A stretch of DNA of 64,000 nt from Longimicrobiales bacterium (GCA_965202805.1 OZ241869.1:1216001-1280000); one strand, 5' to 3'. Counted from the first letter of the stretch, positions 36,230-64,000 are shown. A program made the numbers and translations. The notes: a model not told the origin generated them from the letters alone.

Positions 36230-36283
36230 TTGACAAGCCCTTATCCCGCTCCGCACTTTGTTCGAGAGTCGAACAAAGTGCGG
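36230..36283 (+). promoter_or_regulatory. Sigma70-type promoter overlapped by a palindromic operator (left operon)
   Basis: TTGACA(36230-36235)-N18-CACTTT; perfect 15-bp inverted repeat CCGCACTTTGTTCGA-gag-TCGAACAAAGTGCGG (36251-36283). Confidence 0.8.
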
Positions 36284-36345
36284 CGTGCTCCCACGCTGTT
36301 CAAGGCGCATTCACCGGCGGCGCCCCCCCGGGTCCGGAGCGAATC

Positions 36346-38793
36346 ATGACATCGAACACCTCCCTCGCACCGCCAGCCCTGGCATGCGCGCTCCTCCTGG
36401 CGGCTTTGGGCTGCTCCCGCGATCTGGGTCCGCTCGAGCCGGCGCCGTTTCCGACGAGCGGGGTTGTTTTCGAGGATGATTTCACCGGCGGCGTGCAGTT
36501 CCAGGCGTTCTCCACGTCCAAGGTCGACGCGCTCGCCATCGACCGTGTGGAGCGCTACCGGGGCGTGACCTCGCTCAAGTTCACGGTGCCCGGGCCGGGA
36601 GATCCCTCCGGCGGGTACTCAGGGGGCGCGTTCGTCTCCGCGATTCCCCGTGACCTGACCGGCTTCAACGCGCTCACCTTCCGGGCCAGGGCGAGCACCA
36701 GCGCCATCCTCAACTCCGTCGGATTCGGCAACGACAACACCGGCACCTCGCGATTCGTGGCGGATGTCGGCGGTCTTCCGCTCTCGACGACCTGGACGAA
36801 GTACGTCATCCCGATTCCGCTCGCTTCCAGACTGGACCGGGAGCGCGGCCTCTTCTTCCTCGCGGACGCGCCCGAGCATCAGGTAGGCTACGAGCTCTGG
36901 CTCGACGACATCCAGTTCGAGAGCCTGGGAACGATCATCAATTCACGCCCGGAGATCGCAACCCGGACGGTCAATGGAGAAGTGGGCGGCACACTCGACG
37001 TGACGGGCACGCAGGTCACCTTCGACGTGAACGGCAGGGACGTGACCGTGAACGCCATGCCCGGCTACTTCACGTTCCGGTCCTCGGACGAGAGCGTTGC
37101 CGCCGTCAACCAGGAGGGAGCCGTCGTCCTGGTCGGGGCGGGCACGGCCACGATCACGGCGAGCCTCGGCGGAACCGCCGCGCACGGCACGGTCACCGTA
37201 AACGTCGCGGCGCCGCCCACGACGGGCCCGCCGACGCCGGACTTCCCCGCGGACAACGTCATCTCGCTCTTCAGCGACGCCTACGACGACGTGCCCGTGG
37301 ACACCTGGTCGGCCGACTGGGACCAGGCGGACGTGCAGGATGTCGTGATCGACGGCAATACGCTGAAGCAGTACTCCAACCTGGTGTTCGCCGGCGTCGA
37401 GTTCACCTCGCAGCCGATCGACGCATCGGCCACGACCCACATGCACCTGGATCTCTGGACCTCCGATCCCTCGGCGTTCCGGATCAAGCTGGTGGACTTC
37501 GGCGCGGACGGCGCCTTCGGCGGCGGCGACGACAGCGAACACGAGATCACGCTCAACGAGGGTTCCGTGCCGTCCATCGGCGTCGGAGCCTGGAACGTCC
37601 TGGATATCCCGCTGGCCGACTTTGCGGGACTGTCATCCACGGGTCATCTCGCGCAGCTGATCATCTCCGGCGCCAGCCCGACCGTGTACCTGGACAACAT
37701 CCTGTTCTACAGTTCGGAGCCGATGGTGCCTGTGACCCCGGCGGCGCCCGCGGAGCCTGCGCCCACCCCGACGGCCGCGGCCGGCGATGTCGTCTCGCTC
37801 TTCAGCGATGCGTACGACGACGTTGCCGTGGACACCTGGTCCGCGGAGTGGGACCAGGCCGATGTCGAGGATGTCCTGATCGCCGGCAATGCGGCCAAGA
37901 AGTACACCAACCTCGGCTTCGCCGGCATCGAGTTCACCTCGCAGACCGTGGACGCCTCGGGCATGAGCCACTTCCACATGGACATCTGGACGCCGGATTC
38001 GTCGATGGATCCCGCCGCCTTCCGGGTGAAGCTGGTGGACTTCGGAGCCGACGGGGCCTGGGGAGGGGGGGACGACGTCGAACATGAGCTCGCGTTCACG
38101 GAAGCCTCCGACCCCGCGCTGGCCACGGGGAGCTGGGTCGGGCTGGATGTCCCGCTCCCGGCCTTCGAGGGACTCACAACGCGCGGGCATCTCGCCCAGA
38201 TGATCATCTCCGGCGATCCGAACACGGTGTACGTGGACAACGTCTACTTCTACGCCGTTTCGATGGAGCCTCCCACGGAGCCGGCCGAGCCCGCGCCGAC
38301 GCCGTCGCCGGCCGCCGAGAACGTCATCTCGTTCTTCAGCAACGCCTACGAGAACGTCACGGTGGACACCTGGTCGGCCGATTGGGACCAGGCGGACGTG
38401 GAAGACGTTCAGATCGGCGGGGACGACGTGAAGAAGTACACGAACCTCGCCTTCGCGGGCATCGAGTTCACCTCGGCCACGGTCGATGCCTCGGGCATGA
38501 CCCACTTCCACATGGATGTCTGGACACCGGATCCCACGGCGGACCCGGCCGCGTTCCGGATCAAGCTCGTGGACTTCGGGGCCGACGGGGCGTGGGGAGG
38601 CGGTGACGACGTCGAGCACGAAATCGCGTTCACCCAGGCGTCCGATCCCGCGCTGACCACCGGGAGCTGGGTCGCCATCGAGGTGCCCCTTTCCGCATTC
38701 GAAGGGCTCACGACCCGGGGGCATCTGGCCCAGATGATCATCTCCGGCGACCCGAACACGGTCTTCGTCGACAACGTGTACCTGCACAACTAG
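36346..38793 (+). CDS. Multi-domain glycan-binding lipoprotein (beta-sandwich, Ig-like domain, 3 tandem ~178-aa repeats)
   Basis: Lipobox LAALG-C; CBM-like N-terminal domain (RDLTGFNALTF..W.KYVIP..LWLDDIQF); Big_2-like SSDESVAAV..GAGTATITAS; three repeats VISLFSDAY...DTWSADW...HMD.WT...FRIKLVDFGADG...DNV.F. Confidence 0.8.
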   Translation: MTSNTSLAPPALACALLLAALGCSRDLGPLEPAPFPTSGVVFEDDFTGGVQFQAFSTSKVDALAIDRVERYRGVTSLKFTVPGPGDPSGGYSGGAFVSAIPRDLTGFNALTFRARASTSAILNSVGFGNDNTGTSRFVADVGGLPLSTTWTKYVIPIPLASRLDRERGLFFLADAPEHQVGYELWLDDIQFESLGTIINSRPEIATRTVNGEVGGTLDVTGTQVTFDVNGRDVTVNAMPGYFTFRSSDESVAAVNQEGAVVLVGAGTATITASLGGTAAHGTVTVNVAAPPTTGPPTPDFPADNVISLFSDAYDDVPVDTWSADWDQADVQDVVIDGNTLKQYSNLVFAGVEFTSQPIDASATTHMHLDLWTSDPSAFRIKLVDFGADGAFGGGDDSEHEITLNEGSVPSIGVGAWNVLDIPLADFAGLSSTGHLAQLIISGASPTVYLDNILFYSSEPMVPVTPAAPAEPAPTPTAAAGDVVSLFSDAYDDVAVDTWSAEWDQADVEDVLIAGNAAKKYTNLGFAGIEFTSQTVDASGMSHFHMDIWTPDSSMDPAAFRVKLVDFGADGAWGGGDDVEHELAFTEASDPALATGSWVGLDVPLPAFEGLTTRGHLAQMIISGDPNTVYVDNVYFYAVSMEPPTEPAEPAPTPSPAAENVISFFSNAYENVTVDTWSADWDQADVEDVQIGGDDVKKYTNLAFAGIEFTSATVDASGMTHFHMDVWTPDPTADPAAFRIKLVDFGADGAWGGGDDVEHEIAFTQASDPALTTGSWVAIEVPLSAFEGLTTRGHLAQMIISGDPNTVFVDNVYLHN
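37225..38790 (+). repeat. Three intragenic tandem repeats (period ~531-534 nt)
   Basis: Equivalent (I/V)S(L/F)FS codons at 37261, 37792 and 38326; Pro/Ala-rich linkers between copies. Confidence 0.9.
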
Positions 38794-38821
38794 CCCAGGC
38801 ATCCCGGGGACGGGGGAGACA

Positions 38822-40057
38822 ATGTCCAGCGCGATGACCGCTCCGCAGGCGGCGGGCTCCAGAGCACGCGGGCCCTCGCTCTCGAACCTGATGCTCAAGC
38901 TCATCTGGCGGCGGAAGGAGATCTCGCGGGCCGACATCGCCCGGGTGATGGACCTGTCCAGATCCACCGTCTCAAGGATCGTCTCCGACCTTCAGTCCAC
39001 CGACCTCGTCGCCGATGTCGGCGTCGGGCCCAGCCGAGGCGGACGCCGTCCCGTTCTGGTGGCCTTCCAGGACGGCGCGCGCGTGATTCTCGGGGTCGAT
39101 GTCGGCGCCAGCCATGTCTCGGTGGCGCTGACCGACCTGAGGGGACGCGTGCTGGCCTGGCGGGAGCGAGGACATCCGGTGCGCTCCGACCCCGCCGGCA
39201 CCCTGCGGCTGATCGGCGAACTGTGCGACGCCTGCCTGGCTGCCCGCGACCGGCCTTTCTCCGACCTGGTCGGGATCGGTGTCGCCGTGCCCAGCCCGGT
39301 CGATCCCCGCAATCCGGGCCGCATGTTCGACCGGATCTTCCCGGCATGGCGCGGACACAGCGTCGTGGACCATCTGCAGACGCGCTACGACACCGCCGTG
39401 GTCGTGGACAACGACGCCAACCTGGGAGCCGTGGCCGAGCACCGGTGGGGATGGGGCGTCGGCGTCGACGATCTCACCTACCTGAAGGTGTCCACCGGGA
39501 TCGGTGCGGGACACATCATCGGCGGCAGACTCAACCGCGGCTCTGCCGGGATGGCCGGGGAGATCGGACACCTGGCCACCGCATCGGACGGTCCACCCTG
39601 CGTCTGCGGCAACCGGGGATGCCTGGCCACGTTCGCGGGAACCCTCGCCGTCCTGAACCGCGTGGAAGCCCTGCTCCCGGAGCATGCCGACAGCCTGCTC
39701 GCCGACCGCCGGCTCAGCATCGCCGCCTTCGAGGAGGCGGCTCTGGCCTCGGACCGGCTGGCACTGCGGGTCGTCCACGAAACCGCCCAACACCTGGGAA
39801 CCGCCATCGCGGGCGTCCTCAACCTGATGAACCCGGCCACGGTGATCCTCGGAGGCAGCCTCGCGCGTCTGGGCGACCTTCTGCTGGAACCGCTCCGGGA
39901 CGCGGTGTCGCGCAGAACGTTTGCGGGCTCCCTCGCCTCCGCAACCATCCGCACGAGCGCCCTGGGCCCGCAGTCCATCGCGCTCGGCGCGGCCACCCAT
40001 ATCCTCGACAGCGCCCTGGCCGATACCCGCCTCTTCCTGCGAGCAGCCGCCAAATGA
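38822..40057 (+). CDS. ROK family transcriptional repressor (XylR/NagC-like)
   Basis: N-terminal HTH ISRADIAR..DLSRSTVSRIV..L, GGRRP; ROK domain DNDANLGA, GEIGH, CVCGNRGCL. Confidence 0.94.
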   Translation: MSSAMTAPQAAGSRARGPSLSNLMLKLIWRRKEISRADIARVMDLSRSTVSRIVSDLQSTDLVADVGVGPSRGGRRPVLVAFQDGARVILGVDVGASHVSVALTDLRGRVLAWRERGHPVRSDPAGTLRLIGELCDACLAARDRPFSDLVGIGVAVPSPVDPRNPGRMFDRIFPAWRGHSVVDHLQTRYDTAVVVDNDANLGAVAEHRWGWGVGVDDLTYLKVSTGIGAGHIIGGRLNRGSAGMAGEIGHLATASDGPPCVCGNRGCLATFAGTLAVLNRVEALLPEHADSLLADRRLSIAAFEEAALASDRLALRVVHETAQHLGTAIAGVLNLMNPATVILGGSLARLGDLLLEPLRDAVSRRTFAGSLASATIRTSALGPQSIALGAATHILDSALADTRLFLRAAAK

Positions 40058-40899
40058 ACGCCTTACGCAAGCATCTGCGAGAATGCCGGGTCCGGTTTCG
40101 GATTCCGGTCCGTCCCGTCCTGCTGGTCCCCGCGCTGGCTCTCATCGCGGCGTGCGAAGCGGACGAGGGCCCGATCTGGACGCTGGTCTGGGAGGACGAG
40201 TTCGAAGGAGCCGCCGGCCAGCTCCCCGACCCGCAACGCTGGACCTTCGACATCGGGGGTCACGGCTGGGGCAACGCGCAACTCGAGTACAACACGGATC
40301 GCGCGGAAAACGTGTCCCTGGACGGAAACGGCAACCTGGCGATCGTCGCGCGACGGGAGTCCTACCAGGGCAACGGCTACACCTCCGGCCGCATCAAGAC
40401 CCAGGGACGTTTCGAACAGGCCTATGGCCGCTTCGAGGCCCGCATCCGCCTGCCGGTGGGCGCCGGCATCTGGCCCGCGTTCTGGATGCTTGGCCACGAC
40501 ATCGACGCCGTCGGCTGGCCCGAGTGCGGCGAGATCGACATCATGGAATACCGGGGCCAGGAGCCCGGGGTCATCCACGGGAGCCTCCACGGGCCGGGCC
40601 ATTCGGGCGGCCAGGCGGTGACCCGGCGCCATGCCCTCCCCGACGGGCGCTTCGACACCGACTTCCATGTGTTCGGGATCGAGTGGGACAGCGAGTCGAT
40701 CTCCTGGTTCGTGGACGGCGAACGATACAACGTGGTCCGCAGTGGAGACGTCTCCGGGCGCTGGGCGTACGACCACCCCTTCTTCCTCCTGCTCAACGTC
40801 GCCGTGGGCGGGAACTTCATCGGTCCGCCGAACGACGCCACCGTCTTCCCGCAGACGATGCTGGTGGACTGGGTTCGCGTCTATGAGCGAGCCGGATGA
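40054..40899 (+). CDS. GH16 endo-beta-1,3-glucanase (laminarinase-type) lipoprotein
   Basis: LVWEDEF, GWGNAQLEY, YTSGRI, GIWPAFWMLG, WP.CGEIDIME catalytic motif, LNVAVGG; lipobox LIAA-C; ATGA overlap with the ROK gene. Confidence 0.93.
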   Translation: MNALRKHLRECRVRFRIPVRPVLLVPALALIAACEADEGPIWTLVWEDEFEGAAGQLPDPQRWTFDIGGHGWGNAQLEYNTDRAENVSLDGNGNLAIVARRESYQGNGYTSGRIKTQGRFEQAYGRFEARIRLPVGAGIWPAFWMLGHDIDAVGWPECGEIDIMEYRGQEPGVIHGSLHGPGHSGGQAVTRRHALPDGRFDTDFHVFGIEWDSESISWFVDGERYNVVRSGDVSGRWAYDHPFFLLLNVAVGGNFIGPPNDATVFPQTMLVDWVRVYERAG

Positions 40900-42956
40900 T
40901 GAGCCAGGAGACCGCTCCCCGCGACCGCATCTCCTTTCCCCACAAGATCGCCTACGGGATCGGCGGCTTCGTAAACAACCTGCTGGCGCAGGGCATCGGC
41001 AACATGATGATCGTGCTGACGCTGGCGCTGGGGATGGACTTCCGCGCGGTCGGCCTGCTCGGCAGCCTGCCGCGCGCCTTCGACGCCGTCACCGATCCCC
41101 TGGTCGGGTTCATCTCCGACAGGACCAGATCCCGATGGGGCCGGCGCAGGCCGTTCCTCTTCGCCGGGGCGATCGCGTCGGGGATCGTCTTCGTCCTGCT
41201 CTGGCAGATGCCGGCGCCGACCCAGTTCCGGCTCAAGCTGGTCGACTACGGCGCGGACGGGGTCTACAGCGGCGGCGAGACGGGCGAGCCGGTGGGGCTG
41301 CTGGCATCCGTAGGGGAATCGCTCAGGGGCATCGTCAGCGTCGAACTGATCGACGATGTCGAGGACGAAGTCACCGTCCTGCCCCCAACGCTGGTCACCG
41401 GCGCCTGGGTGAGCATCGACATACCGCTTGCCGACTTCGACGAGCTCGCGACCCGCGAGCATCTTTCGCAGATCCTGATCTCGGGGGACCTGACCGAGGT
41501 TCATGTCGACAACGTCTACCTCTACCGCAGCGCCGACACTGCCCGGGCGGGGCCCGCGGGAGAGGACGTGGAGGGAGTGGCCGCGCCGAACACAGCCGCG
41601 CCGGCGCCAACGCCGGCTGCGGAAGACGTCATCTCGTTCTTCAGCGGCGCCTACGACGATGTCCCGGTCCAGTTCTGGTCCACGGACTGGGACCAGGCGG
41701 ACGTCGCGGACACCGAGGCCGGCGGCGACGCCGTCAAGCACTACACGAACATGCGCTTCGCCGCGATCGACTTCGGCGAGACCCCCGTCGACGCCAGCGA
41801 GATGACGCACGTCCACATGGACGTCTGGACCCCGGAGCCCACCGGCGAGGGCCGGAGCCAGAGCTACTACTTCTGGTACTTCCTGATCGGATCGCTGGTC
41901 TTCTTCCTGGCCTACACCGTCTTCGCGACACCCTGGGTGGCCCTCGGATACGAGCTGACGCCCGACTACAACGAACGCACGCGGCTGATGGGGGTGCAGA
42001 ACTTCGTCTCCAACATCGCCTTCGTCATCGGGCCCTGGTTCCTCGTGATCATGACCAATCCGGCGTGGTTCAGGAACCAGATGGCCGGGGCCAGGTTCCT
42101 CGCGCTCGCCATCTGCATCACGACCATCGTGCTGGGCGTGCTTCCGGCGATCTTCCTGCGGGAGCGGGTGCCGACGAGAGATGCCGCAACGGACGGCAGC
42201 AGCTTCGGGGAGAGCGTGATGCAGTTCCTCAAGGGGCTGCTGCAGACGGTCAGGACGGGTCCCTTCCTTCTGCTCTGCGTCGCGACGTTCCTGATCTTCA
42301 ACAGCTTCATCATGATCTCCCAGTTCCAGTTCTGGGTGTTCGCCTACTACATCTCCGGCGGGAACATCGGCGACGGAGCGGCCCTGGCCGGGCTGGTCGG
42401 GACACTGGGCATCGTCGCGGGCTTCGCGGTGATCGTGTTGGTCACCTGGCTGGGCACCAGAATCGGGAAGAAAAACGCGTTCTTCGTGTCGACGGGCATC
42501 TCGATGTTCGGCTATGCGCTGAAGTGGTTCTGCTATTCGCCCGAATATCCGATGCTGGCGCTGCTGCCCGCCCCGTTCCTGGCCTTTGGTCTGGGCGGAC
42601 TCTTCACGCTCATGGGATCCATGATCGCGGATGTGGTTGATCTGGACGAAATCAGCACCGGCGAGCGGCGCGAGGGGATGTTCGGGTCGGTCTACTGGTG
42701 GGTCGTCAAGGTGGGCCAGAGCCTCGCGATACTCGCGGGAGGATTCCTGCTCTATTCGACGGGGCTCGACCCGGCGCTGGGAGCGAACCAGCCCGAAGGG
42801 ACGATCTTCTGGCTGCGTTTCTACGACGCCTTCGTGCCGCTCGCCGCATCGGCCATCGCTGTGTACGCCGTCTACAGGTACCCGATCACCGAAGAGAGCG
42901 CGCTCAGGGTGCGGGACGAGCTGGAGCGCAGGCGGGGAGCGAGGGCGACGGCCTGA
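40896..42956 (+). CDS. GPH/MelB-type MFS sugar permease with a ~200-aa inserted soluble domain
   Basis: KIAYGIG, FDAVTDPLVGFISDRTRSRWGRRRPF, ALGYELTPDYNERTRL, MIADVVDLDE..TGERREGMF, RYPIT; hydrophilic insert at about aa 111-313. Confidence 0.92.
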   Translation: MMSQETAPRDRISFPHKIAYGIGGFVNNLLAQGIGNMMIVLTLALGMDFRAVGLLGSLPRAFDAVTDPLVGFISDRTRSRWGRRRPFLFAGAIASGIVFVLLWQMPAPTQFRLKLVDYGADGVYSGGETGEPVGLLASVGESLRGIVSVELIDDVEDEVTVLPPTLVTGAWVSIDIPLADFDELATREHLSQILISGDLTEVHVDNVYLYRSADTARAGPAGEDVEGVAAPNTAAPAPTPAAEDVISFFSGAYDDVPVQFWSTDWDQADVADTEAGGDAVKHYTNMRFAAIDFGETPVDASEMTHVHMDVWTPEPTGEGRSQSYYFWYFLIGSLVFFLAYTVFATPWVALGYELTPDYNERTRLMGVQNFVSNIAFVIGPWFLVIMTNPAWFRNQMAGARFLALAICITTIVLGVLPAIFLRERVPTRDAATDGSSFGESVMQFLKGLLQTVRTGPFLLLCVATFLIFNSFIMISQFQFWVFAYYISGGNIGDGAALAGLVGTLGIVAGFAVIVLVTWLGTRIGKKNAFFVSTGISMFGYALKWFCYSPEYPMLALLPAPFLAFGLGGLFTLMGSMIADVVDLDEISTGERREGMFGSVYWWVVKVGQSLAILAGGFLLYSTGLDPALGANQPEGTIFWLRFYDAFVPLAASAIAVYAVYRYPITEESALRVRDELERRRGARATA

Positions 42957-43034
42957 CCGGGGTCGGCCACCTGAGTCGGCGTGCGTCCGCGGACGAGTCG
43001 AGTCACGAGCGGCCGGCGGCGCCCGCGCGCGACC

Positions 43035-44963
<1,929 letters not shown>

Positions 44964-45012
44964 GGATCGGCGACGGGGACCTGGGAGTTCACGCAGCCGG
45001 GCAGGCTCGTTC

Positions 45013-48000
45013 CTACAACCCGATGTGCAGATAGGTGCGGACTTCCCACTCACTTCCCTGCCGGCTGCCGCCAGCCATGGGGTTGCACACCTGTTTGCCC
45101 GCCTGGTCGGACATCATGGCCGGACAGAACCTGGGAGAATACTCGTCCAGGCTGCGCCACGTCGCGCGCACGCCGAAGCGGGTCTGGGGAAGATCGAACC
45201 AGCCGGGCACGCCGAGCACGTAGGAAACATCCCCCATGACCTGCATCGGGAAGGTGTGGTTGTAGTCCCGGTGGTAGTCGTAGGGGCCCCAGTCGTTGAA
45301 GCGAAGGAAGCTCTGGATCTTGACCGGTCCCGTGATCATGCGGATGTCGCCTCCCAGCCGTTTCACAAGCCGCTGGTCGCTCCCGTTGGGCTCCGCCGTC
45401 CCGGTATACACGTTGGCCACGAAGCCCCCGCCCCCCGGACGCTTCGAAACCAGGCGCGCCCGCAACTCCCAGAGATCTCTGGCCGCCGGCGCGCTGGGGA
45501 AGGCGAAGGCAGTGCGCCCGTCGGGCAGAATGCCGATGCCGGCGTCCTGGGTCGTGGCGAAACTCCGGTACACGAAACCCACCGACGCGGCGAACGGGGC
45601 GTCCTCGCGGATATCGCTGTCCCAGTTGTACATCCAGGTGGCGGGAGTGGGATCGTAGGTGATGAGCAGCTCTGCCGCGGTGCTCTCCCGGTTCCCGCCG
45701 CGGACCGCGAACGGGTCGTCGAGGATGTTGCGGGGACGGGCGGGCGCCGGGAGCCCGGCGGGGATCGGTCCCACCAGGGGCTTCTGCCACATGAAGTTGG
45801 GCGCCACCTGCCAACTGCCGGAGTTGATGGCCAGACCGGTGAGGAAGCTCCACCGGTTGCCGATGCCCGAGTCCTTCAGGTGCCATCCGGTGAAGGTGAG
45901 CGTCTGCGTGGGGCCGCCATCGGCAACCAGGCCCATGGCCGCTCCCTCGGCGTACCAGTTCCAGCGTCCCCTGGTCACGGTGAGCTTCGCCTTGGCCCCC
46001 AAAGCGTCGGATGCCTGGATCTCGTCCCCCAGCACCCGGCCGTTCTCGGCGATCTGGAAGGCTTCCCCCACCTTCGTGGAGCCCGACCAGATGCCACCCA
46101 GATCGAGCCCGACTCCACCGCTGGAGGCGGCCGCGAGGTGAAGCGTCGCCTTGCGGGTGGGCGGCAGCGGAATCGCGAACGAACTCGCGACCGACTGCTG
46201 CTCCGCCAGGTCCTCCTGGAAGATGCCCGTGACCTGGAAGGGGCCCGTCTGCCGCTGGTACTTGGCGAGCACGGCCGGGTTGGCGCCCCACCACAGCTCG
46301 GGACCGATGGCCACCTTGAGGCCGCTCAGGGCGCGCTTGCCCATGACCTCCATCCCGAGCGGGGCCACACCGTTGTATATGTCGATGTTGGGCCCGTAGT
46401 TGGCCTCGGGATACAGGCCGAAGAAATCGCCTTCGTATCCCCAGTGATAGTGGCCGGTGCGGTAGAAGCCGTCCAGCCGGAACCAGCGGTCGTCCCAGGA
46501 CACGTTGGCCCGATAGACCTTGACGCGCTCCAGATCGTTCAGCGCCAGCGGCTCGCCGTCGGAACTCACCATGCGCGACCGGCCGCGGTTCTCGTAGAAG
46601 ATCTCGTCAATGGGGTTCGACGGCACGTCGCCGAGCACGTTGAACGACAGGGTGGCGAGCATGTTCTGGGTCGGGCGCGCGGTGAGGTCGGCGTAGAAGG
46701 ACTGCTTCTTGTCGAATCCCATGAACCCCGGACGCGCGATGCTTCCCGGGACCGGGTTCGCGGGTGTGCTCAACAGTGAACCGCCCGTGCTGTAGGTTTC
46801 CAGCTCGATGCGAAGGCCGCTCAGGTGCACGCGGTCACGCGCGGACGCCAGCAGCGCGGCGCGGTCGCCCAGCGCCTGCAGTCCCGCGTCGGCCGCCTCG
46901 ATGGAGCCGAAGTGCTCGCGGATCGTATCCAGATCCGTACCGGGCGCATACGGGTCGAGCCGGTAGGCCTCCTGCAATGCGTAGTAGGCCGCCCGCGGGT
47001 ACAGGTCGTAGAGCTTCCGGTGGTCGGCCGGCCCCTTGGCCACGATCCCCCACCACTCCTCGTTCATGTTGTTGTCGCCCGCCACGAAATCCTCGGGATA
47101 GGCGTCGTTGGCCCAGGACGCGTTCGTGTCCTGGATGTCCAGGCGGTCTTCCTGGCCGAACTTCCACCACCCGTCCGTCCACTGGAAGGTCAGGCCGCCG
47201 ATGGAGTTGCCCACGAGGCCCTTCCCCGCCGACTGCTCGTAGATCTCCTGCCACTGGCCCACCAGGTAGCGGGCCTGGGTGACCTGGTCCTCGCGCATGC
47301 GCCGCGCGTCCCACACGTCCGCGCCGAACTCGGTGAACATCACGGGCACGCCGACAACGTCGTGGACGTCCTGGAAGAGCTGGCCGAAGGAGATGCCCCG
47401 GTACACGTTGGTGCCGAAAACGTCCAGATCCGGAATCTCCTCGGCGATGATGTCGAGGTACTGCAGATCGCCGTTGGCCATGGCGATGGGCCGGGACGGA
47501 TCCATCTCCTTGATCCTTCGGGCGACGTCGCCGAAGAGCGAGTACATGTAGCGCGCACGCACGGCGTCCGCCTCGCCCTGGGGCAGATCCTCGGTTTCGG
47601 CTGAACTCCACACGAGGCCGTAGTTGTTCTCGTTGCCCAGCAGCCACATGAGGACGCCCGGGACGTCCTTGAACTCGTCCACCATGGCCTCGATCTCGGT
47701 CATCACGACTTCCCGCGCGCGCGGATCCGAGTAATCGGTGTTGGCATTGAAGACGCCGCCCACCGTTACGCCATAGCGGGCCACCGCGTGGTTGAGGACG
47801 GTGAAGATCCCGTAGCGCTCGTAGATGTGCCGGACCCATTTCGGCTGGATGCCGACGTATGCGCGGATGGCGTTTCCACCCATCGCCTTGAGCACGGTCA
47901 TCTCCCGCTCGAGCGCGGCCTCGATGACCTCGTCGGACTCCGACCAGAAGTTGTAGTTGTAGGTCGTTCCGATGGGGAAATAGTCCCAGTTCACGCCCAG

Positions 48001-48195
48001 CACCATGAAGTCCTCGCCGTCCACCTGCAGCCGCTGGCCGGAATCGTCGGTGACGATGCGGATTTCGGGGAGGTGGGTCTCGTCGGTCTGGCTCGAGGCC
48101 GGAGTGGCGGCGGCCAGCAGGAAAACCGCCGCCATCGGGGCGCCGATCCAGGATCGGACGACGAAGCCGGCTGAGTGGTGATGTATCCGGTTCAT
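45013..48195 (-). CDS. Clan GH-A TIM-barrel glycoside hydrolase (GH2-TIM/GH158-like) fused to a ~600-aa beta-rich C-terminal domain
   Basis: Signal peptide; MGGNAIRAY, WLLGNENNY (acid/base), GTNVYRG, MFTEFGAD (nucleophile), FQWTDGWWK, NEEWWGI; C-terminal amphipathic strands ending WEVRTYLHIGL. Confidence 0.8.
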   Translation of the reverse strand: MNRIHHHSAGFVVRSWIGAPMAAVFLLAAATPASSQTDETHLPEIRIVTDDSGQRLQVDGEDFMVLGVNWDYFPIGTTYNYNFWSESDEVIEAALEREMTVLKAMGGNAIRAYVGIQPKWVRHIYERYGIFTVLNHAVARYGVTVGGVFNANTDYSDPRAREVVMTEIEAMVDEFKDVPGVLMWLLGNENNYGLVWSSAETEDLPQGEADAVRARYMYSLFGDVARRIKEMDPSRPIAMANGDLQYLDIIAEEIPDLDVFGTNVYRGISFGQLFQDVHDVVGVPVMFTEFGADVWDARRMREDQVTQARYLVGQWQEIYEQSAGKGLVGNSIGGLTFQWTDGWWKFGQEDRLDIQDTNASWANDAYPEDFVAGDNNMNEEWWGIVAKGPADHRKLYDLYPRAAYYALQEAYRLDPYAPGTDLDTIREHFGSIEAADAGLQALGDRAALLASARDRVHLSGLRIELETYSTGGSLLSTPANPVPGSIARPGFMGFDKKQSFYADLTARPTQNMLATLSFNVLGDVPSNPIDEIFYENRGRSRMVSSDGEPLALNDLERVKVYRANVSWDDRWFRLDGFYRTGHYHWGYEGDFFGLYPEANYGPNIDIYNGVAPLGMEVMGKRALSGLKVAIGPELWWGANPAVLAKYQRQTGPFQVTGIFQEDLAEQQSVASSFAIPLPPTRKATLHLAAASSGGVGLDLGGIWSGSTKVGEAFQIAENGRVLGDEIQASDALGAKAKLTVTRGRWNWYAEGAAMGLVADGGPTQTLTFTGWHLKDSGIGNRWSFLTGLAINSGSWQVAPNFMWQKPLVGPIPAGLPAPARPRNILDDPFAVRGGNRESTAAELLITYDPTPATWMYNWDSDIREDAPFAASVGFVYRSFATTQDAGIGILPDGRTAFAFPSAPAARDLWELRARLVSKRPGGGGFVANVYTGTAEPNGSDQRLVKRLGGDIRMITGPVKIQSFLRFNDWGPYDYHRDYNHTFPMQVMGDVSYVLGVPGWFDLPQTRFGVRATWRSLDEYSPRFCPAMMSDQAGKQVCNPMAGGSRQGSEWEVRTYLHIGL

Positions 48196-48277
48196 GGCAA
48201 GACTCCTCCGATGGGCTCCAGCCCGCGCGGGGCGTGCCGTTCAGGACGGCGCAATCTGCCCCGGCGCTCCGCGCGTA

Positions 48278-48327
48278 ACTTTGTTCGCCATCCGAACAAA
48301 GTGAGGAGTCGTCCCGGGCCCTGTCAA
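48278..48327 (-). promoter_or_regulatory. Sigma70-type promoter overlapped by a palindromic operator (right operon)
   Basis: ACTTTGTTCG-ccatc-CGAACAAAGT (48278-48302); minus strand TTGACA(48327-48322)-N18-CACTTT. Confidence 0.8.
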
Positions 48328-50261
48328 GCAGAAAACGCGCGATTGTCGTCAGGCAAGGCGAGTCCCGCGAGCTCCAGCAGCCGCAAGGCGTTCGTCGAGG
48401 TGGCGATGCCGATCCTGAGGCGATAGTCGAAGGTGAGGCCCTCGCTCCCGTCGCCGACGGACTCGGTCAGGTGGACGGGGACGGCGCTCACGTTCAGATC
48501 TTCCGCGTCGGCCAGCGACAGGTCGTGAGTCGTGACGGCGCCGATGGCGCCCGAGCGGAGCAGCCTTCGCAGGACGGTTCGCGCGGCGATTCTGCGTTCG
48601 GCGCTGTTGGTGCCCTGGAGGATCTCGTCGAGGAGGTAGAGGACTCCGGGACCCCCGGACGCTGCGCCATCTGCCGATGCCCCTTCTCCGGCACCGGGTC
48701 CGGGCGCCGCGCCGGCCGTTTCGGCCGCATCCACGACCTGCTTGAGGCGCCGCAGTCCGGCCATGAAGAAGGACACGCCGTCGGCGAGGGAGTCCGCGAC
48801 ATGCATGCTGGTGACGACGCGCAGCGGTGGAATGCGGAGAGCTTCGGCGCACACCGGTCCACCCGCCTGGCCGAGCACGGCATTCAGGCCGACGGCCTTC
48901 ACGAGCGTGGACTTCCCGGACATGTTCGATCCCGTCACCAGGAGAAACGAGCCTGCCGGGCCCACCTCCACGTCGTTGCGCACGCAGAGTTCCGGAGCGA
49001 GAAGAGGATGGCCCAGCGCCCGCCCCCGGAGCGTGGTGGCTTCGGCGTCCAGCGTGGGCATGGTCCAGTCGGGATGATCGGCGGCGAGCGCCGCCAGGGC
49101 GGCCAGCGCCTCGGCTTCGCCAACGGCGTCGATCCACCCGCGGACGCGAGCGCCCGACCCCTTCTTCCAGCGTTCGAGCGCGGCCAGGACATGGACGTCC
49201 CAGAGCAGGACCAGGGAAAGGGGAACGTGGAAGAGGGGCGACCTCCTGACTTCCGCCATGTCCAGCAGCCGGCGCAGCGTCGCGATCTCCCGATGGGCGG
49301 GTCTCGTGCCGGCGCCCAGCCGTCGTCGGAGATCCGTCGCGTAGCGTGACTCGAGGGGTGCGTCGGCCAGGAGGCCGAGCAACGGCCCGTAGTGCCGCAC
49401 GCCCGATTCGCCATCGTCGGCCTCGGAGCAGGCCCGGTTGATCGCCTTCCACGCCGGCGCCATCACCAGAGCCGACACCAGCAGCGGCCAGGCGACGACA
49501 GCCGTGGGCGCCATCCCCAGAGAGTAGAGAATGATGGCGGCCAGATTCACCGGCGGAAGCAGAATCGCCGCCGCGCGAAGCCAGGTGCGCCCGGACAGCC
49601 AGCCCGGACTCTCGCACCAGCGCAGGAAGTCCTCCACCTCCTCCACCGAGTCGCCGTTCATCAGGCGGGCTTCGGCCGCGATGCGGTCCCGGAGATCGAA
49701 GGCGCCGTCCATCTCGCGCACCGCCTCCTGCCGCAAGGCGATGGTCTCCGGGTCCGCCGGAGCGAGAAGCCAGGACCAGAGCGTCGCCCGGCCGGGCGCG
49801 GTTCCGCAGACTCCCGTCAGGTGAACGAGCGACGCGCGACCGTGCAGGTCCAGGTCGTCCGCGTAGTCGTGGTTCCGCGGCACGGCCGGACTGAACGGCC
49901 GGGGCAGACCGGACCACCGGCGCTCGACGCGCGCGATCCCCTCCCGATTGAAGTCGGCCATCAGCTCGGCGCGGCGCAGACGCCGCCGGGCGGCCCGGTG
50001 TCGCGCGACCAGGATCGCGAAGGCCGCGACCGCGCCCGCCACGAGCAGCCAGGCGGCCTGGCCGCGTCCCTGGGAGATCAACAGCCAGGCGCCGACCCCG
50101 GCGGCCGCGAAGACCCCCAGCCGGAGCCGCTCGAGCAACCGGACCACGCCGGCCCTCCCGGCCGCCTCGCGATCGAAGCGGCGGGCGCGGTCCGCGTATC
50201 GGTCGGCGGGCGGTTCGACAGCTTCCGCGCCGGGTGAGGTTGGCTCCGTTCGGGTGCTCAC
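48324..50261 (-). CDS. Membrane-anchored MutS-related ATPase (domain V only)
   Basis: TM helices; DLDLHGRASL, GHPLL, TGSNMSGKST, SFFMA.L.RLK, LDEILQGTNS.ER, TTHDL; no mismatch-binding domain evident. Confidence 0.88.
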   Translation of the reverse strand: MSTRTEPTSPGAEAVEPPADRYADRARRFDREAAGRAGVVRLLERLRLGVFAAAGVGAWLLISQGRGQAAWLLVAGAVAAFAILVARHRAARRRLRRAELMADFNREGIARVERRWSGLPRPFSPAVPRNHDYADDLDLHGRASLVHLTGVCGTAPGRATLWSWLLAPADPETIALRQEAVREMDGAFDLRDRIAAEARLMNGDSVEEVEDFLRWCESPGWLSGRTWLRAAAILLPPVNLAAIILYSLGMAPTAVVAWPLLVSALVMAPAWKAINRACSEADDGESGVRHYGPLLGLLADAPLESRYATDLRRRLGAGTRPAHREIATLRRLLDMAEVRRSPLFHVPLSLVLLWDVHVLAALERWKKGSGARVRGWIDAVGEAEALAALAALAADHPDWTMPTLDAEATTLRGRALGHPLLAPELCVRNDVEVGPAGSFLLVTGSNMSGKSTLVKAVGLNAVLGQAGGPVCAEALRIPPLRVVTSMHVADSLADGVSFFMAGLRRLKQVVDAAETAGAAPGPGAGEGASADGAASGGPGVLYLLDEILQGTNSAERRIAARTVLRRLLRSGAIGAVTTHDLSLADAEDLNVSAVPVHLTESVGDGSEGLTFDYRLRIGIATSTNALRLLELAGLALPDDNRAFSA

Positions 50262-53119
50262 GAGTTGCCGCCGGCTCTCTTGCCGACGCCCGCGACCCTC
50301 TTCCTCTCTTCCTCCAGCTGTTCAAGCGTCACGCCGTGCGTGATCCACGACGGAGCCGGATCGCCCTTCAGGTAGTGGCCGAACCACTCCAGGATGCGGC
50401 GGTGATAGTCCTTCTGGTTGGCTTCCTCGCGCAGTCCGTGATCCTCGCCCTCGTAGACCAGCAGCACCATCTGTTTCCCGGCGCGGCGCGCGAAGTTGTA
50501 GAACTCGGTGCCCTGGTCCCAGTCGACCACCCCGTCGTCGTCGCCGAAGGCCATGAGCAGCGGCGTCTCCAGATTGTGGACCTCGTGGATGGGCGAGTTG
50601 CGCCGGTGGGCCTCGGGATCCTCCCAGAAGGGAACCTCCATGCGCGCCTGGCCGGTCTCCCAGTGGTCGACCTCCGGGATCCCCGGGTTCCAGTGGATGG
50701 CGCCCATGAAGCTCACGAAATCGGTGAGCGGCGCACCGGCCACCGAGGCGGCGAAGATGTCGGTCCGAGTGGGCAGGAAGGTCGCCTGATAGCCGCCCCA
50801 GGAGTGCCCGATGAGCCCGACCGCGTCCGGATCGGCCACCCCCATGTCGACCACCCTGGCCACGGCCGCCCGCACCGACTCCAGCGCGCTGACGCCCGGG
50901 TCGCGCGCCCGGTAGACGATGTCCGGGAGGAGCACCGCGTAGCCGTGCTGGGTCCACGCCGTGAAGTTGTAGTAGTCCCGCTCGCTGGGCGGGCTGAAAC
51001 GGTGCATCCCGGGCGAGAGCATCTCGTAGGTGTAGACGATGGTCGGCACCGCCTGCCCGGGCTCGTAGCCCGCCGGATGGAGCAGCACCGCCTGCAGATC
51101 CCGCCCGCCCTCGCTCGTGAAGTCCACCAGTTCGGCCCGGCCCCACGCCACCTCCGCGATGAACGGGTTGATGTCGGTGACCCGGACCGCGTCGGCCAGG
51201 CCGGGACCTCCGACGAAGTAGTCGGGCGGGTCGTCGAAGGCCTGGGCGCGGTAGAGGAGGACGTCGGCGCTGTCCGCCCGCGCGAGGCCATCCACCAGGC
51301 GGTCCTCGAACACCAGCGTCTCCGGCGGCCCGGCCCGGCCTGACGCGAGGCGCGCGTAGCCCCGCTGCTCGGTCTTCTCGTCGTAGAGGGTCAGGTAGAG
51401 CGGGGCTCCGGGATCGATGCCGGGAGTGTCGTCGTCGGGCAGACGGGCGACCCGGTGCGTGACCCCGGTCTCGGCACCGCCGGTGAGCCGCGTCGCGCCG
51501 CTCCCGTCCAGCGCCACCCGCCAGATGTCGTGCTCGTCGTACAACAGCACGCCGGCGTCATCCTCCAGCCATCCCCCGGGCCCGAAGCCGAAGGGCGGGA
51601 TGACATCGGTGGGGACGTCGTATTCCGTGTTGGCGAAGGAGGTCGGCAGGCTCGAGGTCAGGTCGCGCCGCTCCCCGGTGGCCACCTCGAGGCTCCAGTA
51701 GTTGGCGCCGTCGTACCAGACCAGCCAGCCGCCGCCCGAACTCGGCCACTCGTAGCGGACCCGGGTGAGGAGTCGGCGCCGTTCCCCGCTCCCGACCTCG
51801 ATGGACCAGACATCGTGATACGGACGGCCGAACATCGCCCCGAAGGGATAGGGCCCGGAGATGTCTTCGAGGGCGAACTCCCAGCCCTGAAGCAGCGTCG
51901 CGTCCGCCATCAGGTCGGAGCCGACGGTTACGACCCGGTGCTCGTCAAGATGCCAGACCGCCGGCAGAGTGCGGGTCGCGTCCCGGGCCTCCGCCGCCCG
52001 CTGCTGCGGGAAGATGCGGACGTCCCGGCTGTGCCAGATCTGGAGTCCGGGAAGGTCGGGTTCCTCCTCGGGAGGGTCCGCAGGCCGTGGTTCCCCGGCG
52101 CCTGCCTCGCCGCCTTCCCCACTACCGGAGTCATCCGCGGCATCTTCCTCGCCGGGTCGGAGCCCGATGGAGATCATGGCCCCGTCGTCGGACCACCGCG
52201 GTGCCCGGTTCACGATCTCCAGCGTGTCGGCGATGCCGGTCACACGCTCGTCCAGGACGACCATCTCCAGCCCCCGGTCGAGGCCCCGCCACGCCAGTAC
52301 GTCGTAGGAGGAACCGTCGGCCGAGGCATCCTCCCGCGAGCGCAAGGCCGCCAGGTCGGTGGAGTTCGCCCGCCACCCCAGCCCCCGGTAGCGGGCGCCC
52401 GACGCGTCCGCCGACCGCAAAGTGCCCGAGCCGGCATCGTAGACCTGCACGCCGTTGCCCAGGTCGGTCCCGGTCGCGATCACCATCGCAAGCAGCGACC
52501 CCGGGGAACTCCACTCCATCTCGGCGACGTTGCCGAAGCTGGCCTCCGATCCCGTGGCCAGCGTCACGATCCGCAGGTCGGCACCCTTTCCCTCCGGGTC
52601 GTCGGGCGCATCTCCGCGCAGCGCGAGAAACCGTCCCGACGAATCGAAGCTCCGCCCCGAGACCGCATCGAACTCGCGCATCTCCCCGGTGGCCAGGTCC
52701 AGCAGCGCCGTCCCCTCCCGGAGTGTCTCGCCCTCCTCCTCGAGTCGTTCCCTCTCCTCCGGCGAGAGCCCCACGGTCCACGTCAGCCAGCGCCCGTCGG
52801 GGGAAAAAACCGGGGATCCGCCCCACGGGAAGACGCGCGTCGAGTCCTCGCCCATCCGCCGCACCCGCAGCTCCGCAGTCTCGTCGACGCGGCTTACCTC
52901 GTACGCGATCCAGTCTCCATGCGGCGAAAGCACCGCCGGCCCAAGGCTCTCCCAGCGTCCGTAGTCCTCGGGCGCGACGCGGGGAAGGTCCTGGGCGGAG
53001 AGCGGAAGCGCAACGGCGAGCAACCCCGCGGCCAGTCGGCCCATGGCGGAGCGAAGGCCGCGAGGCGAAAACGTTGGGCCGAGGATGGACACCGGGGAGA
53101 AGGCTGCGGATGAACTCAC
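50258..53119 (-). CDS. S9 prolyl oligopeptidase family serine peptidase, exported
   Basis: Beta-propeller repeats; GHSWGGY nucleophile, GDDDGVV, EDHGL; AAGGAG RBS before GTG at 53119. Confidence 0.92.
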   Translation of the reverse strand: MSSSAAFSPVSILGPTFSPRGLRSAMGRLAAGLLAVALPLSAQDLPRVAPEDYGRWESLGPAVLSPHGDWIAYEVSRVDETAELRVRRMGEDSTRVFPWGGSPVFSPDGRWLTWTVGLSPEERERLEEEGETLREGTALLDLATGEMREFDAVSGRSFDSSGRFLALRGDAPDDPEGKGADLRIVTLATGSEASFGNVAEMEWSSPGSLLAMVIATGTDLGNGVQVYDAGSGTLRSADASGARYRGLGWRANSTDLAALRSREDASADGSSYDVLAWRGLDRGLEMVVLDERVTGIADTLEIVNRAPRWSDDGAMISIGLRPGEEDAADDSGSGEGGEAGAGEPRPADPPEEEPDLPGLQIWHSRDVRIFPQQRAAEARDATRTLPAVWHLDEHRVVTVGSDLMADATLLQGWEFALEDISGPYPFGAMFGRPYHDVWSIEVGSGERRRLLTRVRYEWPSSGGGWLVWYDGANYWSLEVATGERRDLTSSLPTSFANTEYDVPTDVIPPFGFGPGGWLEDDAGVLLYDEHDIWRVALDGSGATRLTGGAETGVTHRVARLPDDDTPGIDPGAPLYLTLYDEKTEQRGYARLASGRAGPPETLVFEDRLVDGLARADSADVLLYRAQAFDDPPDYFVGGPGLADAVRVTDINPFIAEVAWGRAELVDFTSEGGRDLQAVLLHPAGYEPGQAVPTIVYTYEMLSPGMHRFSPPSERDYYNFTAWTQHGYAVLLPDIVYRARDPGVSALESVRAAVARVVDMGVADPDAVGLIGHSWGGYQATFLPTRTDIFAASVAGAPLTDFVSFMGAIHWNPGIPEVDHWETGQARMEVPFWEDPEAHRRNSPIHEVHNLETPLLMAFGDDDGVVDWDQGTEFYNFARRAGKQMVLLVYEGEDHGLREEANQKDYHRRILEWFGHYLKGDPAPSWITHGVTLEQLEEERKRVAGVGKRAGGNS

Positions 53120-53327
53120 GGGAATCTCCTTGATCCAGGCGATGTCGGGGCAGCAAGGCGCATCGTGTCCCGCCGGGGGGTGGCGCCGTCCCGGGCCACG
53201 GTCCGGTTGCCGCGGCGCAGCAGGGAAGATAACCACCGCGAGCACTCTTTCCTCGGGCTCGCCGGCTCCATCCGCTGGCGGTCAACCAGGCTGTGCAGGT
53301 CGGACCATCGATCAGGCGTTCCCTCCT

Positions 53328-63694: not shown

Positions 63695-63752
63695 CCGGGC
63701 CGAACATGCGGAGGCAATCATGAACGTGCATGAGAGACAAGGGAGTCGACCG

Positions 63753-64000
63753 ATGACAAAGAACGGAAACGCAGGTGCCGGAAGATTCACGGGAACACCA
63801 CGACTGAGAGGTCTCGCGGTCCTCGCTTCGGGAGTGCTGCTGACTGCGGCCATCGGATGCAGCGACTTTCTGGAGGTGGACAACCCGGCCAGCCTGCTGG
63901 ACGAGGATCTGGAGCGGAAGGAGCTTCTGGGAACGCTGGCCAATACGCCGGAAGGGAATCTCGCCGGCACCTACTCCAGCCTGCTGACGCGACACGGGCT
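63753..64000 (+). CDS. SusD/RagB-like lipoprotein (3' truncated by the window edge)
   Basis: GGGAG RBS; MTKNG...VLLTAAIG-C-SDFLEVDNP lipobox; follows the SusC-like gene. Confidence 0.75.
   Translation, partial: MTKNGNAGAGRFTGTPRLRGLAVLASGVLLTAAIGCSDFLEVDNPASLLDEDLERKELLGTLANTPEGNLAGTYSSLLTRHG

Follow-up and report, generated by a model that had tools for sequence, protein, structure and literature searches.

How might a bacterium take up a laminarin-type beta-1,3-glucan when the locus that encodes its glucanases holds no SusC/SusD importer? The question is raised by a six-gene locus of a Longimicrobiales bacterium within a window of 64,000 nucleotides (the whole stretch of DNA that was analysed). 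All six genes were found at 36230..48327, where the preliminary description had put them (Table 1). The left operon encodes a repeat lipoprotein, a ROK protein, a GH16 lipoprotein and an MFS permease in this order, the right operon a GH-A/barrel fusion followed by a GH3 protein, and the two converge with a gap of 78 bp. Binder, carbohydrate-active enzymes, permease and regulator are co-located as in a SusC/D polysaccharide utilisation locus. The TonB receptor profile PF00593 has no match between genome positions 1252230 and 1264330, which span the locus, none of the 13 genomic matches to PF07980 (SusD) lies in it, and it holds no ABC system, for which the six genes leave no space. The sequence supports the proposed co-regulated beta-1,3-glucan locus devoid of these importers, and the two facing operons under one palindromic operator likely encode a laminarin-type uptake system. 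In RNA run X1 (share 0.17; contig-level data) the locus and its flanks were covered alike.

Table 1. Features of the locus, in positions of the window.
Feature	Position	Strand	Remarks
Left promoter and operator	36230..36279	+	TTGACA -35; -10 inferred, overlaps operator; conserved in relatives
Repeat lipoprotein gene, 815 aa	36346..38793	+	
ROK-family repressor gene	38822..40057	+	HTH and ROK domain; PF00480 E 2e-53
GH16 lipoprotein gene, 281 aa	40054..40899	+	EIDIME motif
MFS_2 permease gene, GPH-type, 686 aa	40896..42956	+	12 predicted helices
Permuted repeat insert within the MFS gene	41220..41852	+	Between TM3 and TM4; predicted periplasmic
GH3 gene, beta-glucosidase-type	43035..44963	-	SDW nucleophile D304
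GH-A/barrel fusion gene, 1060 aa	45013..48195	-	Signal peptide, GH-A domain, helical linker, predicted barrel
Right promoter and second operator copy	48278..48327	-	TTGACA at 48327-48322; operator 48278-48302

Each operon is preceded by the same TTGACA and 25-bp palindrome (ACTTTGTTCG-N5-CGAACAAAGT, at 36255-36279 and 48278-48302), which bears out the common promoter/operator claimed before. The palindrome occurs only twice in the complete, single-contig genome of 4.02 Mb, even when four mismatches are allowed (base composition predicts 1.8e-7 exact matches), and is therefore common to none of the roughly 37 TonB receptors of the genome (39 matches over the cut-off). A sigma-70 consensus scan of the locus returned no promoters, and terminators were at chance level; promoters are presumed at both operons. 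Of 44 operator copies in related loci, 40 have TTGAC 17-18 nt ahead of their left arm. Among 201 genomes of the phylum, the operator was found in 15, the barrel in 14 and both in 13. Nineteen of the 34 operator matches in the phylum, from seven other genomes, were fetched with their surrounding regions, leaving out two in the own genome and 13 that lie beside a barrel gene by coordinates. All 12 fetched copies with an adjacent TTGAC precede a lipoprotein-type or barrel gene, and the seven without it lie in or beside unrelated genes, e.g. purH, dnaE and rplE. The preliminary description had asked whether the operator also precedes a distant TonB receptor or SusC/D pair; it does so neither in this genome nor in the 19 regions of the relatives. 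The ROK protein combines an N-terminal HTH, a ROK domain and a palindromic operator, as is typical of ROK-family sugar repressors, and among 48 related loci that extend at least 9 kb downstream, 26 have its gene. It likely binds both operators and represses the locus.

The lipoprotein has a conserved N-terminal CBM-like domain, a Big_2 Ig domain and three repeats of ~160 aa (residues 296-455, 473-636 and 651-814) with Pro/Thr linkers. It shows a weak CBM30 match (1wmx, E 0.011). A PDB sequence search with the repeat gave no CBM match and nothing relevant, and the Atlas returned unnamed clusters with CBM_11 (12%) and CBM_4_9 (13%) as leads. With the repeat profile, proteins in the SusE position of SusC/D laminarin loci were hit at E-values of about 1e-35 to 1e-50; one of these (L100) has an N-terminal Ig-like region and three repeats, and adjoins a GH16 with a 7KV5-7-like module. 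The lipoprotein is likely a surface glycan binder and partner of the barrel.

The GH16 protein, encoded by the only GH16 gene in the genome, has a lipobox Cys34 and an EIDIME motif of the EXDXXE type at residues 160-165, the form seen in GH16 laminarinases (GH16_3). Its NCBIfam matches are all under the cut-off, and it is predicted to be an endo-beta-1,3-glucanase. The open frame of the GH3 gene runs on to 45053. No signal peptide was seen in this GH3 or in the related ones inspected (N-termini read by eye), so the enzyme is likely cytoplasmic; glucose is then likely freed there, and oligomers are the likely cargo of the permease. A periplasmic GH3 was rejected on the same N-termini, and the periplasmic trimming suggested earlier does not hold if assigned to this enzyme. 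Cutting in the periplasm is likely done by the GH-A domain of the fusion protein, which we infer to lie on that side of the membrane. The adjacent pfk had been thought to channel the glucose. It lies upstream of the operator-promoter and outside the regulon, is the sole PFK gene of the genome, and was found in none of 80 related loci (most too short to reach its position) and in one of the 19 further regions; it was dropped as a member of the locus.

The fusion protein comprises the GH-A domain (residues 41-431), a helical linker and a predicted barrel (456-1059). In databases it is labelled as a GH2 TIM barrel. Among the GH2 profiles only PF02836 matches (E 7.8e-10, profile positions 36-214 of 302), the sugar-binding and Ig domains that flank the GH2 TIM barrel were not found with Pfam, and LacZ-type NCBIfam profiles reach 15-26 bits, where the cut-offs are at least 900. 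The best Foldseek matches of the GH-A domain are GH158 and GH157 structures. Its model aligns with 9fz9 (GH157) at Z 27.6 and rmsd 2.7 over 305 residues, and with 9oro (GH158) at Z 26.1 and rmsd 3.5 over 303 residues, with 17-23% identity to these families and with GH2 and GH5 structures scoring within about 1 Z. Searches with phmmer gave E-values of 7e-4 to 9ORO and 0.022 to 6PAL. The NE and TEFG motifs align with those of GH158/GH157, and N188-E189 (the acid/base NE) and E289 (the nucleophile) are invariant in 121 of 121 homologues, as expected for clan GH-A. The domain is likely a GH157/158-like glucanase, as predicted from the model.

The barrel was modelled with 24 strands, short turns and long loops, several of the loops having a pLDDT under 50. 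The strands mostly alternate in hydrophobicity, but are not cleanly separated from control strands. A signal peptide, an even number of strands, short turns with long loops and a C-terminal amphipathic strand, all general features of outer-membrane barrels, are present. An aromatic C-terminal residue is found in 27 of 121 fused homologues and in all four stand-alone ones examined that begin close to the barrel. No Pfam family matches the barrel of the window, including the described porin families (LamB, ChiP, OprB, TBDT, ushers) and PF00593, and 70 barrel members matched only DUF6882 (three) and MOSP_N (one) with E-values of 0.001-0.005. A PDB sequence search gave no matches at E 10, and fold searches with the whole fusion model matched no solved barrel because matches to the GH domain filled the lists. 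Nothing firm by way of a name came from PDB, Pfam or the Atlas, DUF6029 (at 0.93) being a lead only. In the literature covered, which includes few subscription journals, no paper was found that describes the barrel or the permease insert, and PUL tables in supplements may list the genes. The barrel is predicted to represent an undescribed outer-membrane family, and model and gene context speak for the enzyme-linked outer-membrane channel that had been suggested.

The permease matches PF13347 (MFS_2; E 1.3e-59) and TIGR00792 (168.6 bits, below the cut-off of 231), and its model aligns with MelB (8t60) at Z 36.7 and rmsd 2.4 over 414 residues, giving the 12-helix MFS fold of GPH symporters. Its insert, in the loop TM3-TM4, is a circularly permuted lipoprotein repeat of nine strands (C-half, linker, N-half). 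This order is kept in all 114 homologues, and the insert is about as conserved (0.79-0.93) as the permease core (0.83-0.86); 16 of 30 related loci have a plain MFS protein without it. DNA contigs of run X2, which may be the source sample, span both ends of the insert with no differences. When the whole MFS model was used for fold searches, the lists contained transporters alone, which does not make the fold of the insert new. The inserted domain likely binds sugar, and model and gene context agree with the earlier idea of a permease equipped with a predicted binder.

We consider it moderately probable that this locus, likely repressed by ROK, brings in beta-1,3-glucan oligomers by way of a predicted fusion of a 24-strand porin with a glucanase and then through an MFS permease whose insert is predicted to bind them. 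The repeat lipoprotein, as the likely partner of the barrel, would capture laminarin-type glucan at the cell surface, where the GH16 lipoprotein, to judge from its motif and presumed location, would cut it. Passage of the oligomers through the barrel would likely be by diffusion, independent of TonB, and the fused GH157/158-like domain, with its presumed activity and side, would shorten them on arrival and so maintain the gradient. The permuted module would concentrate short oligomers at the GPH symporter by binding them, and the cytoplasmic GH3 would release glucose. Glucose or a short oligomer would likely lift ROK repression, by analogy with Thermotoga BglR (PMC3553997).

The barrel was found in 38 of 151 Flavobacteriaceae genomes, and in 36 of 36 fetched Flavobacteriaceae barrel loci its gene is followed by a gene for the same type of lipoprotein, which suggests that the two pair as SusC does with SusD/SGBP. 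In 20 of these loci the regulator directly adjoins the barrel gene and SusC is absent; in barrel-free GH149 loci SusC occupies that slot beside the regulator (14/22). Twelve of the 36 carry SusC/D as well. A strict mutual exclusion of barrel and SusC/D was rejected on this count, and the earlier notion of an alternative to SusC/D stands for the locus itself, which lacks the pair, and not as a strict rule. Stand-alone, enzyme-free relatives of the barrel (580-598 aa) end in F/Y and have a clear signal peptide in two of four cases. Eight loci of such barrels, which include near-duplicates and probably represent one lineage, have GH16 downstream in seven cases and an ABC importer with LacI upstream in five, and no TonB receptor match was found in any of the eight. 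A sugar porin is therefore favoured.

The barrel could instead be an accessory outer-membrane part, either a gated or energised channel or a scaffold for the lipoproteins, with bulk glucan entering through a SusC-type receptor that is encoded elsewhere and regulated separately. The 12 loci with both systems agree with this, as do the many TonB receptors of the genome. Glucan might be imported, under separate regulation, by any of the TonB receptors or SusD proteins elsewhere in the genome. The nearest SusC/D pair starts about 13.5 kb past the right promoter. Among the related loci, L032 contains a plug-type receptor, and L021, L063 and L016 have one nearby. We nevertheless find an accessory role rather unlikely, as just 3 of the 45 related loci that are at least 20 kb long hold receptors, the operator precedes no receptor in the own genome or in the 19 regions of the relatives, the regulator adjoins the barrel in 20 loci without SusC, and the stand-alone barrels accompany ABC importers.

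In type V translocators a helix lies ahead of the first barrel strand. The fusion also has a conserved helix (434-451) directly ahead of strand 1, and the GH-A domain was always N-terminal to the barrel in the fusions scanned, so the barrel might be an autotransporter-like anchor that shows the GH-A domain on the cell surface, small products entering through general porins. This we regard as improbable, given the passenger-free relatives in glucan loci with ABC importers, the strong conservation of aromatic and acidic residues in the extracellular-type loops, and the candidate surface endo-glucanase already present in GH16.

It is quite improbable that the architecture is as described and the substrate another one, e.g. 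another beta-linked glycan. The low identity of the GH-A domain to GH158/157, the close scores of GH2 and GH5 and the GH16 matches below cut-off would allow it. Homologous barrel and lipoprotein genes, however, are found in GH149/GH17/GH30 loci that have a BguR-like regulator and are induced by laminarin in Formosa (10.64898/2026.01.10.698779), and GH149 is present in 37 of the 38 barrel-bearing Flavobacteriaceae genomes.

In synthase-dependent secretion (BcsC/BcsZ, PgaA/PgaB) a glycosidase is coupled to a large barrel. That the barrel likewise exports self-made or periplasmic beta-glucan trimmed by the GH-A domain is highly improbable: the layout and the reversibility of the GH149 phosphorylase (PMC13188888) would suit it, but no synthase is encoded in the locus, and the barrel is accompanied by a repressor, importers, surface binders and exo-glucosidases.

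For the glucan porin with its fused glucanase a wider role can be put forward, to which we give an even chance: a widespread TonB-independent machine parallel to SusC/D, in which a lipoprotein-capped 24-strand porin carries its own periplasmic glucanase, present in roughly one in four Flavobacteriaceae genomes and also in several further phyla, hidden as 'GH2', and completed here by a permease whose permuted periplasmic binding domain would act as solute-binding protein.

The GH158 (6PAL, 9ORO/9P26) and GH157 (9FZ9) endo-beta-1,3-glucanases share the clan GH-A fold with the fusion, but lack its 600-aa barrel and its sequence is distant from theirs. LamB and ChiP are sugar-specific porins. A likeness of the barrel to them is suggested by the stand-alone relatives beside an ABC importer, LacI and a glycosidase, whereas the barrel has 24 predicted strands, matches nothing in Pfam or PDB, and is in most cases joined to an enzyme and accompanied by a lipoprotein. 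The repeat lipoprotein resembles the CBMxx protein of Christiangramia forsetii, whose CBMxx we take to be CBM102. That surface glycan-binding lipoprotein has tandem nine-strand repeats with proline linkers, so that the likeness is one of architecture and description, the present repeat having no PDB match; the available part of that study reports no permuted or transporter-inserted form (10.1101/2023.09.07.556657). The Formosa fusion FbGH17B (PMC6246565) also joins a carbohydrate-active domain to a laminarin-locus MFS, there a GH17 appended C-terminally, here a non-catalytic, permuted insert in loop 3-4. The permease shares the MelB/MFSD2A-like 12-helix fold of GPH symporters. Thermotoga BglR is likewise a ROK repressor with a palindrome of about 23-25 bp, and glucose or cellobiose relieves its repression of a beta-glucan/laminarin regulon (PMC3553997), but operator sequence and phylum differ and the likeness is at family level.

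The laminarin PULs of marine Bacteroidota (variant B / variant 1; Formosa, Polaribacter; PMC6298971, PMC10108472, 10.64898/2026.01.10.698779) have GH16 with a glucosidase, an MFS, a repeat-bearing surface lipoprotein and a local regulator in common with our locus, and homologues of the barrel and lipoprotein lie within such loci. Here SusC/SusD, GH149, GH17 and GH30 are missing, the outer-membrane step would fall to the undescribed barrel, and ROK with a palindromic operator takes the place of BguR. The Muricauda laminarin PUL order (LuxR regulator, 'GH2', GH16, GH149, GH17, GH30, MFS), as given in PMC13188888, agrees with the barrel-type Flavobacteriaceae loci, and from this gene order its 'GH2' would be a GH-A/barrel fusion. 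In the text of that paper 'GH2' is treated as a soluble glycosidase, no outer-membrane barrel is mentioned, and SusC appears only in the references.

With its insert, the permease offers a clean case from nature of circular permutation, by which a predicted binding module has come to sit on a secondary transporter. Laminarin uptake in marine bacteria has been read almost wholly via SusC/D, which serve as substrate markers for it (PMC6298971). If a second outer-membrane route labelled GH2 exists in the 38 of 151 Flavobacteriaceae genomes, surveys of SusC/D would miss it, and it could explain laminarin loci without susCD such as that of one NS4 genome (PMC10108472). Related loci of other bacteria often hold the same barrel, so it may represent an overlooked route of marine carbon uptake.

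The locus is confirmed and its limits are clear. The genome is assembled as a single contig of 4.02 Mb (98% complete; window at G000:C1:1216001-1280000), and the nearest named homologues belong to Gemmatimonadota (Longimicrobiales, Ca. Palauibacter). The left operon runs lipoprotein, ROK repressor, GH16 lipoprotein and MFS_2 permease (intergenic gaps of 28, -4 and -4 bases) and is convergent with the right operon, which encodes the 1060-aa protein and GH3. The same locus with the same gene order was present in one of 18 same-genus genomes, a patchy distribution, and RNA coverage (run X1) was alike over the locus and its flanks. The MutS-type neighbour was absent from all 80 related loci tested. 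The pfk gene, which according to the preliminary description could channel the glucose, lies outside the regulon: it stops 57 bases short of the left -35 box, no other PFK gene occurs in the genome, and it is not a regular neighbour.

Features located in the window and in fetched related loci or regions (L numbers)
Feature	Position	Strand	Remarks
Short MutS-domain-V-type protein	window 48324-50261	-	just upstream of right promoter
S9 peptidase	window 50258-53245	-	just upstream of right promoter
SusC/D-like pair	window about 61000-64000 and beyond		without operator; judging from the frames read, neighbouring genes have no link to glucan
Plug-type TonB receptor, 729 aa	L032:15145-17331	+	between GH3 and permease, in the direction of the barrel operon
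Two tandem repeat lipoproteins, not one	L016:5020-9775 (genome G009)		operators degenerate
1054-aa frame	L018:9645-12809	-	combines leucine-rich repeats with the same CBM-like module in triplicate; lies apart from the glucan locus

Both operons start with TTGACA followed by the palindrome ACTTTGTTCG-N5-CGAACAAAGT. It occurs only twice in the whole genome, even allowing four mismatches; the 39 TonB-receptor matches above the cut-off (about 37 genes) and the 13 SusD matches therefore all lack it. The preliminary description had considered a distant TonB-dependent transporter under the same operator; there is none, the palindrome being confined to the two locus promoters. Among 201 genomes of the phylum the core palindrome was found in 15, the barrel in 14 and both in 13 (related genomes not being independent), while a reversed control pattern gave no matches. 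Nineteen of 34 operator sites were fetched: all 12 with an adjacent TTGAC were upstream of a lipoprotein-type or barrel gene, the remaining seven were inside or beside unrelated genes, and a TonB receptor was seen in none of the 19 regions. No sigma-70 promoter was found by a promoter scanner. TTGAC precedes the operator's left arm by 17-18 nt in 40 of 44 copies, a spacing at which the operator likely overlaps and covers the -10 box. In three genomes (L173-L175 with L159, L166 and L168) the two operons are 20-300 kb apart; two of these genomes keep the operator at both halves, the third at the lipoprotein half. In Thermotoga, 23-bp palindromes serve as binding sites for ROK proteins, and glucose or cellobiose releases BglR (PMC3553997).

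In the model of the 1060-aa protein (pLDDT 79.5, 121 sequences) a GH-A domain is followed by 24 long strands, whose connections are mostly short turns on one side and long loops on the opposite side. Structurally, the enzyme part matches GH158 and GH157 glucanases best, GH2 and GH5 scoring only slightly lower, and E189 and E289 are invariant (121/121 sequences). The barrel had no matches in PDB or Pfam, and no fold match, the enzyme part having taken up the fold lists. Hydrophobicity alternates in most barrel strands, and likewise in some control strands. The family is large: 5225 out of 8000 candidates scored, pattern matching in species genomes gave at least 611 (of 612 listed matches), and the barrel profile gave 590 clusters. 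As modelled, the barrel is an undescribed family of predicted outer-membrane domains; the side of the membrane on which the GH-A domain lies is assumed from the usual barrel topology. The proteins P0243 (1351 aa) and P0329 (1218 aa, including a CBM_4_9 domain) are longer fusions with added N-terminal parts. Four SusC/D laminarin loci (L106, L108, L131 and L134) contain a separate GH158-like gene that has no barrel and shows 25-28% to the GH-A domain; in L131 and L134 it occurs together with the fusion.

Among 151 Flavobacteriaceae genomes, GH149 (identity confirmed by comparison with 6HQ6) was found in 58, the barrel in 38 and both in 37. We fetched 36 barrel loci, leaving out G121, G169 and the G041 barrel locus. 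A conserved lipoprotein follows the barrel in all 36; in 20 a BguR-like regulator directly adjoins the barrel gene without SusC, in 12 SusC/D is alongside, and four could not be placed in either class. SusC was seen in 14 of 22 barrel-free GH149 loci (fetched mostly for the upstream side only, some contigs being short). From these counts, barrel and lipoprotein behave like a fixed pair able to fill the SusC/D slot or to stand beside SusC/D. "SusC/D-free", as the system had been called, holds for the window's regulon and not for the barrel family, and the SusC/D kept in those twelve loci speaks against the uptake mechanism proposed here. Relatives of 564-598 aa have no GH domain; the four stand-alone relatives read all end in F or Y, two with a clear signal peptide. 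In eight metagenome loci of one enzyme-free relative (near-duplicates among them; 14 ORFs checked by Pfam), GH16 follows the barrel in seven, an ABC importer and LacI precede it in five, and there were no TonB-receptor matches. An ABC importer, LacI and a glycosidase are the gene context of sugar porins, which argues against the barrel being a mere enzyme anchor. Locus position and enzyme-free relatives together point to the barrel as a putative glycan channel. In L178-L185 (relatives of P0317) an enzyme-free barrel is flanked by an Opp-type ABC importer, a LacI regulator and GH16. Plug-type receptors inside the related locus L032 (without a SusD match) and near L021, L063 and L016 also count against the uptake mechanism, although receptors in three of 45 long loci are no more than expected from a genome with one per 100 kb. 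We consider the proposed uptake mechanism as a whole moderately probable.

The periplasmic trimming first proposed, if meant for GH3, does not agree with the absence of a signal peptide from GH3 in the window and from the related GH3s among 31 N-termini checked by eye. The final cleavage likely takes place in the cytoplasm, in which case short oligomers are the likely cargo of the permease. In the permease model, which has 12 helices, a domain of nine strands is set into the loop linking TM3 to TM4; in the MFS topology this loop faces the periplasm. The insert has the order repeat C-half, linker, N-half and aligns contiguously (51%) over a lipoprotein repeat junction, which suggests such a junction as its origin. 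The permuted order was seen in 114 of 114 aligned sequences (seven of the 120 listed matches, one self and six partial, left out), and conservation is similar in the halves and in the permease. Of 80 related loci, 14 have the permease with insert and 16 a plain permease. Most plain-permease loci (L025, L047-L051, L055, L069, L070, L076 and L082 have this type) contain two GH3 genes versus one in insert loci, possibly a lineage effect.

The lipoprotein consists of a conserved N-domain (weak CBM30 match), an Ig domain and three repeats. Searches of PDB with the repeat gave no match, and its profile matches SusE-positioned proteins in SusC/D loci. One such protein, in L100, shares the domain arrangement published for the binder of C. 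forsetii (preprint 10.1101/2023.09.07.556657) and adjoins a GH16 with a 7KV5-7-like module; from this layout and neighbour, the repeat is likely a CBMxx-like laminarin binder. Tandem lipoprotein duplication is common to several Longimicrobiales loci.

Searches of the literature (main text) turned up neither the barrel nor the fusion nor the permuted insert. Muricauda loci with a regulator, "GH2", GH16, GH149, GH17, GH30 and MFS are presented without SusC in the main text of PMC13188888, and we infer that this "GH2" is the GH-A/barrel fusion. One laminarin locus is noted to be without susCD (PMC10108472), an MFS-GH17 fusion is a precedent (PMC6246565), and the GH149 locus type is laminarin-induced (BguR preprint). 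GH16_3 is reported from marine Gemmatimonadota with no discussion of uptake (PMC11316326), and known laminarin locus variants are defined in PMC6298971 and PMC6794258. The window's locus resembles known regulated beta-glucan utilisation loci in its overall kind, yet differs from them in being built around two undescribed components, a predicted outer-membrane family and a permease architecture with a permuted insert.
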